DNA of 64,000 bases from Dictyostelium discoideum (Eukaryota), in NCBI GenBank assembly GCA_000004695.1, contig CM000154.2, positions 1,312,001 to 1,376,000 of the forward strand, in the 5' to 3' direction. Position 1 is the first letter of the stretch. Each line of letters opens with the position of its first letter. The position numbers and the translations under genes were made by a program. Shown piece after piece: positions 5,088-40,203 of the stretch. The notes beneath the pieces are model-generated. The model was not told where the DNA came from. It saw nothing but the letters and a program-made list of their open reading frames with translations, and searched no databases.

Positions 5088-5259
5088 ATGAATAAATTTT
5101 ATTCATTACCATTAATTATTATTTTAATAATTTCGTGTGGTGCTTTTTTTATCCACGGAGAAGAGGCATATTTTGAATATAGGATTCATAATGAAAAATT
5201 TATTTTCAAACTTAGTGATGATATTAAAATTCAACATGCAAGAAGAGTATTATCTGGTG
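5088..5259 (+). CDS. Secreted tandem-repeat protein, exon 1 (signal peptide [24 protein letters not shown]...)
   Basis: ATG at 5088 (track ORF) opens a hydrophobic N-terminal signal peptide. Donor GTATGT at 5260 leaves phase 1. Confidence 0.55.
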
Positions 5260-28774: not shown

Positions 28775-29245
28775 TTATTTTTATCACAATTAATTACAAA
28801 AAAGGAAAAACACTTTTTAATAAAAAAATAAAAAAAAAAATAAAAACACAAAAATTGTTGGGGTATTTTTTTTGTTTTTTTGTTTTTTTTTTTTTTAATA
28901 GATTTATTTCAAAGAGATTGAAAAAAAGAATTCCAATAATAAAATGACCCTTTGATAGCTAATAAACATTTATTTTGTTTTCATAGATACACATATATTA
29001 TTTGAATTTTTTTAATTTTTTTATTTTAATTTTTATTTAATTTTGATTTAATTTTATTTTTTTTTATTTTTTTTTATTTTTTTTATTTTTTTTTTAATTT
29101 AATTATTATTATTATTATTTTCACACCTATTTTTAAAAAAAAAAAATTAAAAAAATAAAAATAATTTTTTTTTTTTTTTCATTTTCATTTCAATTCAATT
29201 TTACTAAACACAACATAACCTTATTATAAAAACAAACATATAAAA

Positions 29246-29248
29246 ATG
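29246..29248 (+). CDS. Metallothionein-like Cys-rich protein, exon 1 (ATG only, then GTGAGT intron)
   Basis: ATG is immediately followed by donor GTGAGT. A 140-nt T-rich intron ends at 'gtatttag' at 29388. Confidence 0.5.
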
Positions 29249-29317
29249 GTGAGTAAAATTTTAATTCTCATTAATTTATTAAATTATCAATATAATTGTA
29301 GTTCATAATATTAATTT

Positions 29318-29363
<46 letters not shown>

Positions 29364-29388
29364 CTTCTTTCTCTTCTTCTGTATTTAG

Positions 29389-29541
29389 ACACACTCATGT
29401 AAATGCGGAGACTCTTGCCAATGTGGTGATAAATGTACATGTGGACCAAAGGAAACACCAAAATGTGGATGCAGTGACTGTAAATGTGGCGATAAATGCT
29501 CAAGTGATTGCAAATGCACCTCTTGCACCTGTAAAAAATAA
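29389..29541 (+). CDS. Metallothionein-like Cys-rich protein, exon 2 (51 aa total, about 18 Cys)
   Basis: THSCKCGDSCQCGDKCTCGPKETPKCGCSDCKCGDKCSSDCKCTSCTCKK*. It has CxC/CxxC spacing, a CKCTSC core as in vertebrate MT (CKCTSCKK), and no aromatic residues. Confidence 0.6.
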   Translation, partial: THSCKCGDSCQCGDKCTCGPKETPKCGCSDCKCGDKCSSDCKCTSCTCKK

Positions 29542-31262
29542 ATTTTACCTTTAATAAATAAACAATTATCATTCAAAAAAAAAAAAAAAAAAAACAAAAC
29601 AAATTGTTACCAACTCAAATCAACCAATAAAATTTCAAAAATCAAGTTACTTTTCTATTTTTATTTCTTTCTATTTTTTTTTTTATATTTTTTCCTCTTT
29701 TCTTTCTATTTTTTTTTATTTTTCCTCTTTTCTTTCTATTTTTTTTTTTTTTTCTCTTTTCTTTCTTTTAAAATATTCATAAAATTTGGAAATAAATTAA
29801 AAAAAATAAATAAAATTAACAATTAATTACTTATGATATCTTTAATTGTTATCTTTTTTTTTTTTTTTTTATTATAAAGTCAATTTTTTTTTTTTTTTCA
29901 TAATTCAAAGATACCATACTTCACATCCTTTTGGGGAAATGACAAATAATAAATAAAATAAATTATTTTTAGAATTTCTAAAAACGTAAAAAAATGAAAT
30001 ATTTTTATTTTTTGTGAAATTTTTATTTTTTTATTTTTTTAAAATGTCCCACAATCATATTGAATAGTTGGTCTAGGTTAGAGCAAATTAAAGATTGTTT
30101 TTTTAAAATTTGAACAATTAAATGTGTACCCAAATACTCTTTCTTAAAATTAATTGGAAAGAGTCGTTCCTGTACCCAAGAAAAACCTTTACATGTATGG
30201 TAAAACACTGACTAGGAAGGCATCTCGCCAATTTTAGCTGGTACTTGGATTGTATTACATTCCCTAAAAATAATTTCTAAAAAAAAAAGAAAAAAAAAAA
30301 TATATGTGTATAATACACTCTTTTAAATCAACTTGACCTTTTACTCTAATATATAAATGTATCAAATAATAACAAAACTTTTTTTTTTTTTAAAAAAAAA
30401 TTCAAATAATATTACCTTAATTATTTTTATTTTTATATTTGTTTATTTAACTCTCCTTTACAGAAAAATTGCAAAATAAAACGAATAAATTTATAATTTA
30501 GATTGTAATTTTTTTCTAATTCGAGTAATGTTATCATAATAATAATATATTGATAAAGGCATTCAAGCCTGACACTTGAGAAAAAAATACTTTCATTCTA
30601 TTTTTTTTTTATTTTTTTTTTTTTTAACAACAATTTAATTTTTTTTATTTTTAAAAATGAACTAAGTATTGATAAATAGAACACTCAAAAATATACAAAC
30701 TATATAAAAAAATGAATGTAATAATAAAAAAATAATAAAAAAAAAAAAAAAAATAAAAAAAATAAAAAAAAATTAATTAAACAACTTAAATTATTTGCCA
30801 TCAAAAAAAAAGCTTTTTTTTTTTTTTTTTTTTATAAATGTTATAAAAAAAATAATAAATTATATAAAAAAAAGAAAAACCCTTTTTGAACATCATTTTT
30901 AACTGAAAACTTTTCTGATCTGTAAAATAATTATTACTGCGCAACGATTTGTTAACAAATGCAAAATTAGATATTTTCAAAAAATTTTGTTTTATTTTTT
31001 TAAATTTTTTTATTTTTTTTTATTTTTTTTTTTTTTTTTTATTTTTTTATTTTTTTATTTTTTTATTTTTTTTTTTGTGCCTTTTCAATATAAAAAATTT
31101 TTCTTTTGAAAAATAAAAAAAAAAATTTTATTTATTATTTTCTCATTATTGTTATTGTTGTTTTTTATTATTTTTATTTTCATTAATTAATTCAATAAAT
31201 AAAAAAAAAAAAAAAAAAAAAAAGAATAGTTTCAATTTGGATTAAATAAAAAAAAAAAAAAT

Positions 31263-31269
31263 ATGGAAG
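31263..31269 (+). CDS. Acidic-N-terminus / multi-TM membrane protein, putative exon 1 (ATGGAAG, then GTAATT)
   Basis: ATG GAA G is followed by donor GTAATT. It joins in phase to acceptor 'tttag' at 31519. Speculative; the alternative start is the track ATG 31483 inside an A-run. Confidence 0.3.
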
Positions 31270-31519
31270 GTAATTGGTTTTTTTTATTTTTTTTATTTTA
31301 TTTTTTATTTTAATGAAAATAAACAAAATAGAATATATATATAATAATAAACACACAAATATCCAGTGTGGTGCTATGAATCATAGCACTTTATATTTAT
31401 ATCATATATTAACTTTATTTTTTTAATTATTTTTTATTTTTCTTTTATTTTTTTATGAAAAAAAAAAAAAAAAAAAAAAAAAATGAAAATAAAAATAAAA
31501 ATAAAAAAAAAAAATTTAG

Positions 31520-32309
31520 TATTAGCATCAGAGATATCATCAAATGAAAAATCAGCTTTTACAGAGGAAGAAGATGATTATTATGAATTTTCAGACTCTG
31601 AAACAGATTCTTTAGATTATAACCTTGAAGATTCATCAAATGACGAGAATAGTGGGGATGGTGATGGTGATGGTGGTGTTGTAGAAAGTGATGATAATAA
31701 AAATTTAAAACGTAGAAAAAGATCAAAAAGACCAACAACATTAGGAGAATCAAATAAAGATGGTGAAACAGCCAATTCAGTATCGATTTCAGCAGGTACA
31801 TCAAAATCAAACATTTCATCACCATTAGTTGATGGTGCTGACATTTTATCAAAACCAAATAGTAGCCCAACAAGTAGTAGTTTAAGTGGTAGTAATAGTG
31901 CAAATGGTTTCTTATCAGATGATGATGATTTATTATTAAATGGTAATGAGCAATTAAATGAAAACCACAATACTAATTCAACCAATGGTGCTACCAATAA
32001 TAACAACAACAATAACAACAACAGTGGCAGCAATAGTCCATCACATCAACAATCATCAGAATTACCATTATTAAATTTATTTCAAAAGTTTTTAAATAGA
32101 GAAGCAATTAAAGTTTTACAACAAAGACATTCAGCAATTAATAATAGATTACAAAGATTAAAGAAAGTAGTTGATCCAAAGAAATTACGTGAAAGAGGTA
32201 AAATCTTAAAAAATGAAAAAGAGAAAATTAAGTCATTAATTAAATTAAAGAAAGTTCAATTAGATGATCATATGAATGCGCCACCATTTATTAGATTATT
32301 AGATAAATG
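31520..32309 (+). CDS. Acidic-N-terminus / multi-TM membrane protein, exon 2 (S/D/E/N-rich hydrophilic domain with a basic KRRKRSKR patch and coiled-coil)
   Basis: In frame with track ORF 31483..32313. Donor GTAAGT at 32310 leaves phase 2. Confidence 0.6.
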
Positions 32310-32423
32310 GTAAGTTTTTATTTTATTTTCAAATTATTGTGTGTGTGTGTGTATGTTAAATAATTGGAAAATTTTAATATTAACAAATAATTAATGTTTT
32401 ATTTTATTTTATTTAATTTATAG

Positions 32424-33366
32424 TGCATTTACAATGGGATTAATAATTTTAATGGTATCAGAATTTGTTTTATTAAAATCACCACAATTATTTTATTTAT
32501 GGTACACAGTATTAATATTTCCATTGATGGCAATTAGATTTGTAATGTATCATCGTGAGAAATATCATTATTTCATGTTGGATTTCTGTTATCTTTGTCA
32601 AATATTGCTATTGTTTTATTTGTTTGGTCATCAATATATTTTAGGAGAAAAGGTTACACCAAATTTATTCAAATTGGTATTTGCACTAAGTAATGGTCCA
32701 TTGGCATGGGGTACAATCGTATGGAGAAATAGTTTAGTATTCCATGATGTTGACAAGTTGACATCGGTTTTCATTCATCTTTGTCCACCAATTGTAACCT
32801 ATTGTTTGCGTTGGTTCCCAAACGTTTATCCAGAGCAATTGGCATGTGGTGGTGTAGAGTGTGTTTTATCCTTTAAAGAGATTTTCTTTGTTCCATTCAT
32901 GGTGTATGCATTTTGGCAAGTCTTTTACTACATTAAAACTGAGGTGGTCGATAGTGACAAATTAGCCAATGACAAGGAAATAATGACCTCTTCAAGATGG
33001 ATGTCTGTAAAACAACCCCACCCAATCTATAGATGGTGTCAAAAGAATGGTTACAACGTTAGTCCTGTGGTTATTTTAATTTTAGTTCAAATGCTTTACA
33101 CTTTGGCCACTTGTATCTCTTTACCTTTCTTAATTCAATCATTTTGGTTACACACTGTCTTTATGATTTACATCTTTGTCACAATCTCTTGGAATGGTGC
33201 CTCTTATTATTTCGAAGTTTTCTCTGAAAACTATAGTTCACGTTTAAATAGTGAATTCAAACATAAACACAACAAAGATCAACCTTTAAAAATTACTTCA
33301 ATCAAAGCTTTCTTAAAATTTTTAGCTTTATTCTTAACTTCTTTAATAGTTTATTTGAAATTAATT

Positions 33367-33372
<6 letters not shown>
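32424..33372 (+). CDS. Acidic-N-terminus / multi-TM membrane protein, exon 3 (at least 8 predicted TM helices)
   Basis: Acceptor 'aatttatag' at 32423. TG+T makes Cys and the frame runs into track ORF 32434..33372, so the two track ORFs are one gene. Confidence 0.6.
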
Positions 33373-33477: not shown

Positions 33478-33483
33478 TAGTAA

Positions 33484-33571
<88 letters not shown>

Positions 33572-33572: not shown

Positions 33573-33782
33573 TAATAACAATGGGAAAAAATTTTCATTG
33601 GCCACATTGTTTTTTATTCACAATTAAAATAAAAATATTAAAAAAAATAAATAAAATAAAATGTATAATTTACAAATAAAAAAAATCCGTTTTTTTTTTT
33701 TGAAGTTCCTTTTTAATTTTTGGGGTTCATTTTTTTTTCACTTTTTTTTTTTTCATTAATTTTATAAACATTACCAAAAAAA

Positions 33783-33923
33783 ATGAGTGGCAAAGAAGAC
33801 TTAGAATCACCTTCAAATTCATCGTCACTTAAAAAAATTGATATCAGTAAAGGGCCCTTTAATATTACTGTATCCAATGCGGCAACAATTGTAAATCTTT
33901 TATTGAAGAGATACAAATATTAA
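33783..33923 (+). CDS. N-terminal segment of a coiled-coil protein gene, out of frame with the main ORF
   Basis: ATG opens MSGKEDLESPSNSSSLKKIDISKGPFNITVSNAATIVNLLLKRYKY*. One extra T in the T4 run at about 33897 would fuse it to the downstream ORF as ...NLFIEEIQILKNEILEKEKCIQ. Confidence 0.35.
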   Translation: MSGKEDLESPSNSSSLKKIDISKGPFNITVSNAATIVNLLLKRYKY

Positions 33924-33934
33924 AAAATGAAATA

Positions 33935-34663
33935 TTGGAAAAAGAAAAATGTATACAAGAAGTAAAAAATTTTAATATTCCCATACCATTAATAGAGAAG
34001 GTTGTAAATACTTTTATGGAAGATAAGGAAAAAGAAAATGAAACTAGACTCACTTCATTTGTACATTCTCAATCTATAAAATTAAAAAAAAAAGAAAAGG
34101 AATATGAAAAGAAGTTAGATGAAAGGGAAAAAAATTTACCTGAAGAAAAAGAAAGGGAGTTAAAAGAAAAAGAAGAAGTTATTGCTGGTTTGCAACAGGA
34201 AAAAGTAGAATTGGTAAAAAGAGTTGAAGAACTCGAACAAAATTTATCGAGGGTCCAAAGCATAAACTCCCAATTATCTGCTGATGTAACTCTTTTACGT
34301 TCAACTTTCAAAACAAATCAAACTGAAATTGATACAAAAATTAAAGATTTAGAAGATAGGCTTGCAGCAGAGAAGAAAAGAGAAGGTCTTAAAGCAGCAG
34401 CTTATAATTATTCATCTGAGGTTTCAAATTATTACCTCAAACATTCTTTATTACCATTACTTACAACCACTAGTGGGTATGCTTCATTTGTAAATAGTTT
34501 TAAACCTGGTAAAAAACCACCCAAATTCGAAAAGTACTTTGAATTGAACTATTATAAAGATCCAGATATTATCGCTCTTGCAAAAAATAATCACAATATA
34601 GATTTAACTCTTCTATATGATCTTATTTTTAAAAAAAAAAAAACATTACACATTTTGTATTAG
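33935..34663 (+). CDS. Coiled-coil protein, main ORF (MEDKEKENETRLTSF...EKKLDEREKNLPEEKERELKEKEEVIAGLQQEKVELVKRVEELEQNL...)
   Basis: Track ORF (TTG-initiated by the ORF caller). The first in-frame ATG is MEDKEK at about 34008. It ends in DLIFKKKK at an A13 run. Confidence 0.55.
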   Translation: MEKEKCIQEVKNFNIPIPLIEKVVNTFMEDKEKENETRLTSFVHSQSIKLKKKEKEYEKKLDEREKNLPEEKERELKEKEEVIAGLQQEKVELVKRVEELEQNLSRVQSINSQLSADVTLLRSTFKTNQTEIDTKIKDLEDRLAAEKKREGLKAAAYNYSSEVSNYYLKHSLLPLLTTTSGYASFVNSFKPGKKPPKFEKYFELNYYKDPDIIALAKNNHNIDLTLLYDLIFKKKKTLHILY

Positions 34664-34848
34664 AGGGTTTTGAAGAAATTCAAAATGTGTATGAAATAGC
34701 AATGAAAAATTATAACGGTCTTATTGATGGAGATCATCAAGTTTTATTGAAAAATTTAAAGACAATAATTCCACCACCAAGTTCAAATCCATTTACACCG
34801 CAAACAAAGAAAAGAGCGCCTGTGGAAATTCAACCCTTTAATAAATAA
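34644..34848 (+). CDS. C-terminal segment of the coiled-coil gene in the +1 frame after the A13 run
   Basis: NITHFVLEGFEEIQNVYEIAMKNYNGLIDGDHQVLLKNLKTIIPPPSSNPFTPQTKKRAPVEIQPFNK* opens immediately 3' of the A13 homopolymer. A change of 1 nt in the run length would fuse it to the main ORF. Confidence 0.4.
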
Positions 34849-35340: not shown

Positions 35341-38300
35341 TTATTGAAGATGTGATTTTGTAATTTTTTCATAATAATCTTTTTCTTTTTCAAGTGATTG
35401 CTCATAGGTAACATAGAATTTCCATAGGAGTTCAAGTTTTCTAATTTGACAAATTACGATGGACCTAATTAAATCTCTAATTTCTTGTTCTTCAAGTTCG
35501 TAATATTTCTTTGATTCATTTTGAATTGTTTCAAAAGCGGCGGCAGTTGCTGCTTGGATTGCAGCCTCTGAAAAATATTCTGGATTTGGTTCAGGGATTC
35601 TAGATTTCTTTGGTGGTGGTGGTGACATCATTAATAGGGATGTTTTAGTGGTGGTCGTGGTTGATTTTCTTATATCGACAGAAGCTGTTTCCATTTCAAC
35701 ATCTTCATCATCATCTTCTTCACCAACACCATCTACACCATTTTCTTTCTTTTCATCATTTAAATCATTTTCTTCTTCCTCAACTTCTTCCATTTCATTT
35801 TCTTCATCTTTATCTTTTTCATTTTTATCTACATTGTTATTATTATTATTATTTTTATTATCAACATCCATTTTATCATTACTATTATTATTATTATTAT
35901 TATTATCATCATTATCTACAGGTTTTTTTTCATTATTTTCAACAACAGTTTCCATATTATTGGATTCAGCTGTTTTATTCTCTTCATTAGTATTATTATT
36001 ATTACTATTGTTTTCATTTGTTTTATTGGTTTCATTATTATTCTCTTTATCAACAATAGTATTTGTAGTGGTTGTATTTGATTCGCTAATTGGTGTTGCT
36101 GGTAGTGTTGCAGGTGTTGTTGTTGTGGGTGTTTCTTTTGGTTTTTCAGATTGGTCGGTTGTTATATTTTGTTCTTTTGAGGTTATTTGAGTATTACTAT
36201 TGGATTCGCTATTTTCTTTTGATTCTTGGTTATCACTACTCATTTGTTCATTTGATTTCGATTGGTCATTAGATGATTGTGATTCACTTAAATTATTTAA
36301 ATCTTTTTCTTTTTCATTTTCATTTTCAATTTGCTTTTCATTTTTATTTTCATTTTCTTTTTCTTTTTCATTTTCATTTTCTTTATTATCATCTTTTTCA
36401 ATTTCTTTATTATGGTTATGACTATTGTTGTTATTATCATTATCATCTTTTTGTTGATTTTCTTCCTCAGTAATAGATTTTTTATCGTTTTCTTTGGTTT
36501 CTTTTTCATCAATTTTTACATGATCATCTTGATTCATTTCTACAGTTTCTTTATTTGTTGAAGTTGACGAATCTTGTTTCTCTATTTCCATTTCTTTAGT
36601 AGTGGTAGTATTGGTAGAATCACTTTTATCATGATCTCCAATAGCTTCTTTATCTTTTTCTTCTTTTTCTTTATCCTCTTTAATCTCTTTATCTTCTTTA
36701 TCTTTACCTTCTTTATCTGTACCTTCTTTTTCTTTATCTTCTTTATTTTCTTCTTTTTCTTTATCTTTATCTTCTTCTTTATCTTTTTCTTGTTTTTCTT
36801 TATCTTCTTCTTTTTCTTTATCTTGTTTTTGTTTATCTTCTTCTTTTTCTTTATCTACTTTATCTTTAGCTTCTTTATCTTCTTCTTTTTCTTTATCTTC
36901 TCTTTCTTTTAATTCTTTTTCTTTTTCTTTTTCTTTATCATCCTTTTCTTTTAATTCCTTTTCTTTTGATTCTTTTTCTTTTAATTCTTTTTCCTTATCT
37001 TCTTTTTCTTTATCATCTTTTTCTTTTTGAATTCTTTCCAATTCTTCTTTTGAAGGTTGTTGATATTTTGGATCATTTAAAATTTCCAAAATGACTTTGG
37101 CAGCCTTTGAAGCCAATAAACCTAAAGGTGGTTGAGAATAAGAGGAGAAGAAAGCAACTAATGACATTATTGGATTATTTACACCATAGGTAATTGAGAA
37201 AGGATTATTTGAATCGATTTCTTTCTTTGAAAGTGAACCAACTGGAAAAGATGAGATTTTTCTCTCAAGGAATTCGTCTTCGATTGGTAACCTTATGAAA
37301 TGAGTTAAACATTGTTCAGGTGTTTTTGAGCCACCAATATAATCAGAGATCTCTTGCCAATTATCACGGAAAATTTCAATACCCTCCAAGAGTAATAATG
37401 TTTCAATATCGGTCCAACCAAATTCCTCTGGTTGGTGTTGTTCAATCCTTTGAAATGATGATGATTGTATGAAATTCTCATAATTACCACTACTAAAACA
37501 ATTGACACATATTATCATTGGATAGAAATATTCGGGTAGAATATTTCCATCCAATGCCGTTGAATTATTAACTAATTGATATCTTACATTTGAACAATCT
37601 GCTTTACATTTCTTACATTCAAATAATGGTTTCTTCTTTTTAATTAATTGATCATTTGCTGATTTCGTTGTTGTCAATTTCTTTGGTTCTTTACTCTTTT
37701 CATCTTCTTCATCTTCTTCATCCTCTTCAATTTCCATTTCTTCATCTTCATCCTCTTCTACCACTTCACCCTCATCATTTTCACCTTCAATTTCACCTTC
37801 TACCTCTTCATTTTCTTTTAATTTATCTTTTTTAATTTCACTTTCAACTTCTTCGTCTTCTTTTTTATTATTAATTTTCTCTTCTTTTTCTTCATCCATT
37901 TTTTCATCTTCATTAATTCCTTCTTTATCAATTTCTATTTTTTCATCTACTTTTTCATTTTCATTTTCATTTTCTTTTTTATTTTCTTTTTCTTTTTCTT
38001 TTTTATTTTCATTTTCTTTTTCATTTTCATTTTCTTTTTCATTTTCATTTTCTTTTTCATTTTCTTTTTCATTTTCTTTTTCATTTTCTTTTTCATTTTC
38101 TTTTTCATTTCCATTTTCAGTTTTATCTTCTTTTTCTTTTTCATTTTCTTTATCTTTATCTTGTTTTTCATTTTCATTATGATCATCGTTTATTTCTTTA
38201 TCCTCTGATGATTTTTCTTTTTCAAGATTAATAATTGGTTGATCTTTCATTTCTTTATCTGTTTCGATTGAATCAGTAGTTTGATTTGTTGTTTCTGTTG

Positions 38301-40076
38301 TTTCTACACCATTATTCTCTTTTGTAGTATCAGTTTCCATCATTTCTTTATCTTTATTCTCTTGGACAGGTTGTTCTTTCATTTCCTTATCATTATCATC
38401 TGTTTCGGTTGATGATGATGATGATGATTCTGCTACCAAGGTATTGGTGGAAGTTGTTGTTGTGGTGGTGGTAGTGGTGGTGGTATTATTACTATCTGTT
38501 GTTTCATCTTTTTTATCATGATTTTCTTTTATTTCTTTATTTTGACTATCATTTTTATTTTCTTTTTTTTCAATTTTTTCTTGTTCATTTTCATTTTCTT
38601 GTTTTTCTTTATCATCTTCCTTTTCTTGTTTTTCTTTCTCTTCTTTTTCTTCCTTTTCTTTTTCTTCTTTTTCTTCTTTTTCTTCATTTTCTTCTTTTTC
38701 TTCTTTTTCTTCTTTTTCTTCTTTTTCTTGTTTTTCCTCTCTTTCTAATCTTTCTTTTTCTTCCTTTTCCAATCTTTCTTTTTCTTCTTTCTCTTGTTTT
38801 TCCTCTCTTTCTAATCTTTCTTTTTCTTCTCTTTCTAATCTTTCTTTTTCTTCTTTTTCTCTTTCTTCATGTTTAAATTTCTTTCTATAGAAAGATTGAT
38901 AAAATTCATTACAATAATTGAAAACACCAGGTGATATTATATTCATATAGTCACCACTATTTACAAAGCAATTGATTAAATCCCAATACTCTAAGAAATC
39001 GAAAATTTTAATTATTGATCTTATATTAACTTTGAAAGTTTTTTTATTTTGATTTATGAAATGATTTTTAACATCTGTAACTGATAGATATTGGTATGGA
39101 TTCTTTTGATAGCTTGTAATCATATAGTCACGATATATTTTATATAATTCTTTATTTGATAATTGAAGCTTTTGTTTTTTTTTAATATATTTATATTCTA
39201 CACTATCTACATAACTATATTCATCTTCATCAATTTCATCATAATCTATTTCTGTCATATTATTACTACCACTACCACTACCATTGCCATTGCCATTGCC
39301 ATTTTCATTGTCATCTTGAAAGAATTCTGGTAAATTATTAATTTCAACTTGATGTATATTATCTAAACTTGTGAACCAATTTGGTAATGGGCATTTTGGT
39401 GGTGTTATATTGGTTGGTATTGGGAATGAACGTTTTGTAGTTGTTCCTTTTGAAATATTTGTTACAACTAATTGTGAGGCTTGATAAGTTGTTGTACCAC
39501 CAACTCCACTATTACTACTACCATTACCAATACCACCTACTATAACTCCTACACCCCCACCAACATTTAAATTATTTAATCCACCACCACCACCAATATT
39601 TGATGTTTTACCACTAAATCTACCTCTATTTGGTGTTGATGATCCACTTCCGCCACCACCAATACCCCCACTACCAGTTAAAACAGGTTTATATGGTGTA
39701 CTACCATTATATGCAATTGTTGAATTATTACTACTACTAGAACTACCACCACCACCACCACTATACCCTATGAATTGATTTGAAAATGGGGTTGATCCAA
39801 CACCGCCACCACCAATCGGTGATGATAATGCTATTAAAGATGATGGTGTCGATGGATTATTTGGTGTACCAATAAATGGTTTAATTGGTGTTCTTGGTGA
39901 TGATGCCGTTGATGATAAGTTTGGTAATGGTTTACCAAATTGATTAATTAATAATGGTGGTTTTATTGGTACATTGGTTGGTGTGGTTGATAATGGTGTT
40001 GTAGATGCAATCATTGTATTTAATGTATTTGTCGTTGTAGTTGTTGTTGTCGGTGTTGTAGTTGTTGGTGTTGTAG

Positions 40077-40117
<41 letters not shown>

Positions 40118-40203
40118 GGTGGTGCTGCTGCTATATTTGATGGTACACTTCCTAATATTGGTGTATTTCCAATGCTACTAGCATTATTACCTATTGTACT
40201 CAT
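35341..40203 (-). CDS. SWI/SNF complex subunit SWI3/SMARCC-like (SWIRM, ZZ zinc finger, SANT, C-terminal leucine-zipper region) with very long E/K-rich low-complexity inserts
   Basis: Single 1620-codon ORF. SWIRM: YKIYRDYMITSYQKNPYQYLSVTDVKNHF...IRSIIKIFDFLEYWDLIN. ZZ: KCKADCSNVRYQ...CVNCFSSGNYENFIQSSSFQRIEQ. SANT: WTDIETLLLLEGIEIFRDNWQEISDYIGGSKTPEQCLTHFIRLPIEDEF. C-terminal: ELEEQEIRDLIRSIVICQIRKLELLWKFYVTYEQSLEKEKDYY. Confidence 0.8.

Follow-up and report, generated by a model that had tools for sequence, protein, structure and literature searches.

Locus and reading frames

The stretch analysed here (the window) comprises 64,000 nucleotides (nt) of Dictyostelium discoideum (NCBI GenBank assembly GCA_000004695.1, contig CM000154.2, positions 1,312,001 to 1,376,000, forward strand); its G+C content is 14-31% across 2-kb blocks, and long A/T runs and (AAT)n tracts are frequent. 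Within it, a coiled-coil gene is spread over three reading frames, and protein matches assign this gene to DDB_G0288283, a hypothetical protein of D. discoideum AX4 (XP_636791.1 = UniProt Q54J56 = P0002, 260 amino acids, aa). A sequence-only reading of the window had described an ATG-initiated open reading frame (ORF) of 46 codons, a main ORF of 242 codons, a T4 run, an A13 run and a +1 frame of 68 sense codons that leads to a stop at 34846-34848. All of these were confirmed at their coordinates. It had also let the main ORF stop right after the A13 run, where six further codons (TLHILY) actually precede the TAG at 34661-34663.

Relatives of the gene were collected by an indexed protein search, which returned P0003, and by an exhaustive HMMER search with the C-terminal domain of P0003, which returned P0091 and P0092. 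P0091 is encoded at locus L008 of a divergent 'D. discoideum' isolate. This locus is the syntenic orthologue: it shares its neighbours with the window (upstream a long gene, downstream a SWIRM-like gene and ATG101), and over 16 kb its nucleotide identity to the window is 86-91%. P0003 is encoded at locus L005 of 'Dictyostelium cf. discoideum', shares no neighbour with the window and may be either an orthologue or a paralogue of DDB_G0288283. P0092 corresponds to the paralogue annotated in AX4 as DDB_G0276045 (Q75JN0), an uninterrupted 342-codon genomic ORF in a single exon. The features of the locus, in window coordinates, are the following.

33783-33923, +: ATG ORF of 46 codons (coordinate modulo 3 = 0)
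33783-33852, +: ancestral N-terminal coding sequence that keeps the frame of the ATG: MSGKEDLESPSNSSSLKKIDISK and then the first base of a further codon
33853-33860, +: first lesion, the 8-nt frameshifting insertion GGCCCTTT, from the three-way alignment of AX4, L008 and L005
33861-33901, +: cysteine-motif stretch (YYCIQCGNNCKSF), where the true coding frame restarts with its first full codon at 33863; the 46-codon ORF reads it in another frame
33898-33901, +: T4 run
33902-34387, +: coiled-coil region, frame 2; AlphaFold2 gives a helix for the matching parts of P0003 and P0092
33921-33923, +: premature TAA, which terminates the 46-codon product from the ATG after the first lesion
33935-34663, +: listed ORF of the main coiled-coil frame (frame 2, coordinate modulo 3 = 2), 242 aa, ending in ...DLIFKKKKTLHILY and the stop; the frame is open from 33863
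34388-34630, +: first part of the conserved C-terminal domain, frame 2 (AAAYNYSSEVSNYYLK...DLTLLYDLIF), aligned with L005, L008 and the paralogue
34626-34643, +: second lesion, T5A13, one base shorter than in L008 (TTTTTTATAAAAACAAAAA) and L005 (TTTTTTATAGAAATAAAAA)
34631-34643, +: A13 run
34642-34848, +: third frame (frame 1, coordinate modulo 3 = 1), open from 34633; its 68 sense codons start at 34642 and are closed by the TAA at 34846-34848
34644-34848, +: 3' part of the C-terminal domain and tail, stranded in frame 1 (ITHFVLEGFEEIQNVYEIAMKNYNGLIDGDHQVLLKNLKTIIPPPSSNPF...QPFNK and the stop); conserved in L005, L008 and the paralogue
34661-34663, +: premature TAG, which closes the frame-2 reading (KKKKTLHILY and the stop)

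The start context of the ATG ORF (AAAAAAAATG) and the T-runs upstream of it are typical of this genome, and the N-terminal coding sequence is kept in the relatives, as MSGKEDFESPSNSSTPLKKIHISK in L008 and MSGKEDFDSPPNSS... in L005. At the other end, the frame-1 tail, whose peptides include NVYEIAMK and NYNGLIDGDHQVLLK, runs to the original stop, the TAA at 34846-34848, with AATAAA (34840-34845) immediately 5' of it.

The first break is an 8-nt insertion

Which frame is the true one between the ATG and the coiled coil? The comparison with orthologues, a check that the sequence-only reading had itself proposed, gave a direct answer. In L008, the ATG frame is unbroken through a cysteine motif into the coiled coil (MSGKEDFESPSNSSTPLKKIHISKEYDCFECGNNCKSCIADIQRLKNEILEKEKCIQEVKNF), which leaves no place for an intron at the first break. 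The motif, CxxCGNNCKxC, recurs across the three genomes as CIQCGNNCKSF in frame 2 of AX4 (YYCIQCGNNCKSF), CFECGNNCKSC in L008 and CSECGNNCKCC in L005. Its conservation, together with the continuity of L008, identifies frame 2 as the true AX4 coding frame from 33863 onwards. The 46-codon ORF leaves this frame after codon 23, and the stretch ...GPFNITVSNAATIVNLL, earlier taken as part of the product, is out-of-frame sequence that follows the 8-nt insertion. Removing GGCCCTTT in silico restores the frame (...ISKEYYCIQCGNNC... / ...KKIDISKEYYCIQCGNNCKSFIEEIQILKNE...).

The insertion completes a perfect 12-nt palindrome, AAAGGGCCCTTT (33849-33860). GGGCCC, which lies inside this palindrome, occurs once in the 64-kb window against 0.13 expected. 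The inserted GGCCCTTT is also the reverse complement of AAAGGGCC, directly before it, and this suggests that it may have been made by hairpin or template-switch repair.

At the same spot, the three-way alignment places a 1-nt deletion in L005. Relative to L008, which is intact here, the two changes are +8 nt and -1 nt. Because these differ by 9 nt, AX4 and L005 looked as though they were broken in the same way and show no indel against each other beyond 33861; this had raised the idea of a conserved intron, or of a frameshift that both copies had long shared, which was dropped because the two lesions are different. A fusion of the first two pieces at T4, for which a 355-aa protein had been built, was dropped as well. 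One extra T in this run does join the pieces arithmetically, as the sequence-only reading had pointed out, but L008 shows frame 2 to be real from 33863, and the actual break is the insertion about 40 nt upstream, in which T4 plays no part. A 62-nt intron at 33846-33907, put forward as the sole candidate, has its GT at 33847 in fact, a GC content of 34% and a donor that is not conserved in L005, and was rejected; other GT-AG pairs are found at 33891-33997 and 34490-34665.

The second break is a one-base loss in T5A13

At the second break, L008 (DLIFYKNKNIAHCVSEGFEEIQ; ...DLIFYKNKNIAHCVSEGFEEIQNVYEIAMQNY...) and L005 (DLIFYRNKNVAHCVSERYEEIQ; ...DLIFYRNKNVAHCVSERYEEIQDVY...) are unbroken, each in one frame, and the intact single-exon paralogue DDB_G0276045 also reads straight through. 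The aligned stretch is TTA-(T6)-ATAAAAACAAAAA-C in L008, ATAGAAATAAAAA in L005 and TTA-(T5)-(A13)-C in AX4. The A13 run is new in the AX4 lineage, where it formed from ATAAAAACAAAAA by T>A and C>A changes. The break had been assigned to A13 itself; a one-base loss in T5A13 is indeed what we found, but the missing base may sit in the adjoining T5. Most parsimoniously, it would have been lost in a change from T6 to T5; alternatively, an A could have been lost from a transient A14. As the AX4 sequence now stands, the frame comes back only if an A is added (...DLIFKKKKNITHFVLEGFEEIQ...), while an added T creates a TAA stop.

Both breaks are present in independent assemblies

A sequencing or assembly error at T4 and A13 in the reference, with an intact gene behind it, had been one of the options raised for this locus. 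Four Logan short-read assemblies bear on it. The contigs of SRR26869256, SRR26869266 and SRR26869267 are 100% identical to the window and colinear with it, and the contig of SRR28564541 is colinear with a sole difference in the promoter region (T11 against T12 at 33742-33753); T4 and A13 have the same length as in the window in 4/4. Since two of the contigs (L001, L004) cover 230 nt of the T-run promoter region, the Logan contigs would seem to be genomic DNA. The chromosome-level assembly GCA_054883475.1 (L006), which is probably the AX2-214 genome of PMC12745789 judging from its zero mismatches and the assembly table of that paper, agrees as well: over 13 kb there are no substitutions, and T4 and A13 are unchanged. 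Seven indels separate it from the window: six fall within long A/T runs elsewhere (1-11 nt; window 28729, 33371, 33415, 40294, 40357 and 40455), and one is GG against G (31276).

All four Logan assemblies and GCA_054883475.1 carry the 8-nt insertion and the 1-nt loss in identical form. Given this agreement, which extends to T4 and A13, both frame breaks truly exist in the laboratory lineage that derives from NC4. Errors are common in long A/T runs, and L006 does differ from the window at six other such runs; nevertheless, the two runs in question are the same in five independent assemblies, and the first lesion is an 8-nt non-homopolymer insertion and no T-run slip. An error in the reference therefore has next to no probability left.

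The annotated introns cover coding sequence

The reference 260-aa protein is rebuilt exactly by joining 33783-33890, 33998-34489 and 34666-34848. A newer model, P0004 (KAM9947191.1, 290 aa), uses the same first intron and a different second one.

33891-33997, +: 'intron 1' of the reference model P0002 and of P0004, 107 nt, 19.6% GC; actually coding, with the cysteine motif and the start of the coiled coil
34490-34665, +: 'intron 2' of the reference model, 176 nt, 23.9% GC; cuts the core of the conserved C-terminal domain
34580-34665, +: 'intron 2' of P0004, with a GC donor; also cuts the core of the C-terminal domain

The sequence-only reading had held that no intron can reconcile the breaks, and the read-through in L008 and the paralogue bears this out, although the reference annotation does employ two such introns. 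If that annotation were correct, DDB_G0288283 would be a functional gene with two spliceosomal introns, the breaks would be exon boundaries and Q54J56 would be a genuine protein of 260 aa. Both reference intervals begin with GTAAAT, end with AG, have a length of 3n+2 and are fairly AT-rich, and the GTAAAT and the acceptor TAGAG of intron 1 are also present in L005. Their GC contents of 19.6% and 23.9% compare with 10-16% in flanking intergenic DNA and about 30% in the exons. In 'intron 1' the coding frame is the only stop-free one, and in 'intron 2' that frame is closed only by the premature TAG (34661-34663), three bases short of the end of the interval; the other frames of both introns hold 3-8 stops each. 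Composition and the preserved reading frame thus speak against a non-coding character.

The homologues likewise read these intervals as coding, L008 at the first break and L005, L008 and the single-exon paralogue at the second. The L008 sequence that corresponds to 'intron 1' is continuous with the ATG, and GTAAAT falls within the codons TGT AAA TCT of the cysteine motif. 'Intron 2' deletes the segment that is best conserved with L005, L008 and the paralogue, and its donor is missing from L005 (GAAAAT); a second annotation pipeline picked another intron 2, whose donor is GC. Annotation sources alone record the spliced 260-aa product in the protein collection searched. We therefore consider it improbable that the reference annotation is correct. 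As judged from the aligned homologues, its two introns are gene-prediction devices that restore the frame by deleting conserved coding sequence. The gene models in four genomes (P0002, P0004, P0003 and P0091) all bridge lesions by short invented introns.

Recoding on the A13 run

Could the second break be repaired during expression? A-runs of at least 11 cause slippage in many organisms. The A13 run contains the canonical slippery heptamer A AAA AAA in the zero frame, and either a -1 shift or an A14 transcript would give exactly the conserved frame, such that RNA-polymerase slippage, ribosome sliding or -1 frameshifting might restore the C-terminal domain in some products. Translation, however, is already stopped after 46 codons by the first lesion upstream. 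Nothing structured was found in the RNA downstream of the run (34644-34743, minimum free energy -15.5 kcal/mol, z = -0.83 against shuffles). The two-frame arrangement is new and not conserved: the run is interrupted in the relatives, and L005, L008 and the paralogue are single-frame at the second break. The gene also diverges at about the intergenic rate (see below). Programmed frameshifting, likewise among the options first raised, is not supported, and we rate recoding of any of these kinds as very unlikely.

A small gene family

The repaired 352-aa product of DDB_G0288283 aligns in one piece with P0092 (residues 120-344, E = 6e-18), and the alignment spans the second break and everything that is cut by the model introns. 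Such a one-piece alignment with an uninterrupted paralogue indicates that the pattern of frame pieces is more than chance. AlphaFold2 models of P0003 and P0092 (4-row alignment) show one long coiled-coil helix with a predicted local distance difference test score (pLDDT) > 90 and a C-terminal domain with pLDDT < 60. In the family protein, a helical C-terminal domain of about 140 aa follows an N-terminal peptide and a long coiled coil.

No homologue outside the D. discoideum complex was found by word-indexed protein searches and exhaustive HMMER, and none in the syntenic region of D. purpureum (L007), beside the GPC1-like gene. Pfam returned sub-threshold coiled-coil matches only and no family match for DDB_G0288283, and literature searches for both gene identifiers and the run accession gave no result.

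P0092 is also encoded on a 1117-nt Logan contig (L010) that ends in an Illumina adapter (AGATCGGAAGAGCGTCGTGT, 1098-1117), 13 nt after AATAAA. This end probably marks the transcript end; the adapter sequence itself is a contamination in a public assembly. In L005, a second C-terminal-tail remnant (LKNLKALIPPASSNPSIPPPQTKQRAP) lies at 5146-5226, about 800 nt upstream of the P0003 copy, where the annotation assigns it to the end of a Dus (tRNA-dihydrouridine synthase) gene; a tandem duplicate may have left it behind.

Decay and divergence

The copies in the relatives carry lesions of their own. The L008 copy lacks about 560 nt internally (window 33976-34535) and a single nucleotide near 34756, and the L005 copy has deletions of 1, 1, 1, 5 and 2 nt. 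Divergence between AX4 and L008 was as follows.

DDB_G0288283: identity 92-93%; omega 0.5 (154 codons); differences by codon position 14/9/13
Flanking intergenic DNA: identity 89-92%
Neighbouring GPC1-like ORF: identity 98.6%; omega 0.04; differences by codon position 1/1/11

Between AX4 and L005, omega for DDB_G0288283 is about 1.5, with differences by codon position of 41/46/33. Unlike the neighbouring ORF, DDB_G0288283 diverges at about the intergenic rate.

Neighbouring features

A long (AAT)n microsatellite (33478-33570) occupies intergenic sequence upstream of DDB_G0288283, and two Logan contigs break inside it at 33553. On the other side, a minus-strand ORF of 1620 codons (35341-40203) converges on the gene. 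It contains very long EKEK/NEKE as well as poly-T/poly-N low-complexity tracts, we took it, going by its sequence only, for a SWIRM/SANT-type protein, and its L008 orthologue is annotated at 1741 aa. The newer annotation (L006 1471-5596, window about 29235-33372) merges a metallothionein-like region and the DUF2838 (GPC1-like) ORF into one gene of 627 aa, whereas the DUF2838 part is a single ORF of 312 codons in the window (32434-33372). In a protein search with this 312-codon ORF, the D. discoideum protein itself was not among the matches.

Discussion

Based on the lesions, the relatives and the divergence, DDB_G0288283 is very probably a pseudogene annotated as protein-coding, the disabled copy in a small family whose members all came from the D. 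discoideum complex in these searches. This was one of the options of the sequence-only reading, and the one that gained support: homologues exist in the paralogue P0092 and in the copies of L005 and L008, and the lesions are real. We propose that the ancestral gene had one exon with about 352 codons. Two real mutations are present in the NC4-derived lineage of AX4 and AX2: an 8-nt insertion after codon 23, through which translation from the ATG ends after 46 codons, and the loss of one base in T5A13, which splits the final 68 codons off the C-terminal domain. The three 'ORFs' would accordingly be three frame pieces of one dead ORF, and we infer that no functional protein is made from DDB_G0288283.

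Several observations weigh against this interpretation. The Nei-Gojobori omega against L008 is 0.5, from only 154 codons with few sites, and of the AX4/L005 indels of at least 3 nt, 5/7 are multiples of three (p about 0.045). There is a weak hint that constraint on the gene was lost only after the AX4 and L005 copies had separated, fairly recently. The annotated GT-AG sites might be spliced cryptically, or slippage on A13 might take place at a low level. The assemblies of the relatives are Nanopore and Illumina hybrids (PMC12745789), and where they show a one-base lesion within a homopolymer, an error might lie behind it; the AX4 lesions are unaffected by this. Finally, the assemblies that carry the lesions may all stem from one isolate (NC4), so that wild D. 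discoideum may still hold an intact allele.

The last point leads to a narrower alternative, a lineage-specific null allele: fixation of the lesions would be restricted to the laboratory strains of NC4 descent (AX2/AX3/AX4), and the gene would still be intact and functional in wild populations. It is consistent with all assemblies with the lesions being identical to AX4 at the locus, with the presence of only two lesions and with the lean of indels between the copies to multiples of three. Yet two other lineages are also disabled, by different lesions, which points to a general dispensability of the gene, and its divergence is close to the intergenic rate. We regard such an allele as unlikely but deserving serious consideration; as a special case of the pseudogene reading it may still apply. 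Two more speculative scenarios are, even taken jointly, highly unlikely. The locus might not be dead, with cryptic splicing removing the insertion region and slippage on A13 restoring the C-terminal domain in some molecules, which would yield a low-dose, shortened member of the orphan family; or the three independent inactivations might represent the selected loss of a gene with a role in some conflict.

With DDB_G0288283 read as a pseudogene, Q54J56 / XP_636791.1 (260 aa) and KAM9947191.1 (290 aa) are probably artificial proteins spliced from a frameshifted gene. GT...AG pairs are easily found in very AT-rich genomes, and gene predictors can thus turn pseudogenes into 'hypothetical proteins'. 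In addition, the comparison delimits an orphan family with two members in the D. discoideum complex, in which DDB_G0276045 is intact and DDB_G0288283 decays independently in three lineages. For work on gene birth and death, its interest is minor; the main value lies in the correction of the annotation.

How does the locus compare with known systems? With programmed -1 frameshifting and transcriptional slippage sites it has in common the A AAA AAA within A13, from which a -1 shift reaches the conserved frame; it differs from them in that the break is not conserved, no structure follows and the ORF is already broken upstream. Its paralogue DDB_G0276045 (Q75JN0) is built likewise, the same C-terminal domain coming after a long coiled coil (28% identity over 251 aligned positions), with the common stretches YxYxxxxxNYYL, SGY, DP(D/N)I, DLI...N..TH and HQ..L, but is uninterrupted and has neither the MSGKED... 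N-terminus nor the CxxCGNNCKxC motif. Homopolymer-associated frameshifts resemble the second lesion, a 1-nt loss in the 18-nt T5A13, although here the run formed newly in the AX4 lineage and the first lesion is a palindrome-forming 8-nt insertion that is not homopolymer-related. Unitary (non-processed) pseudogenes share with DDB_G0288283 an intact family homologue, verified frameshifting indels, divergence at about the intergenic rate and the ancestral syntenic position; what sets the locus apart from them is that AX4 carries only two lesions, and its inactivation may be recent.

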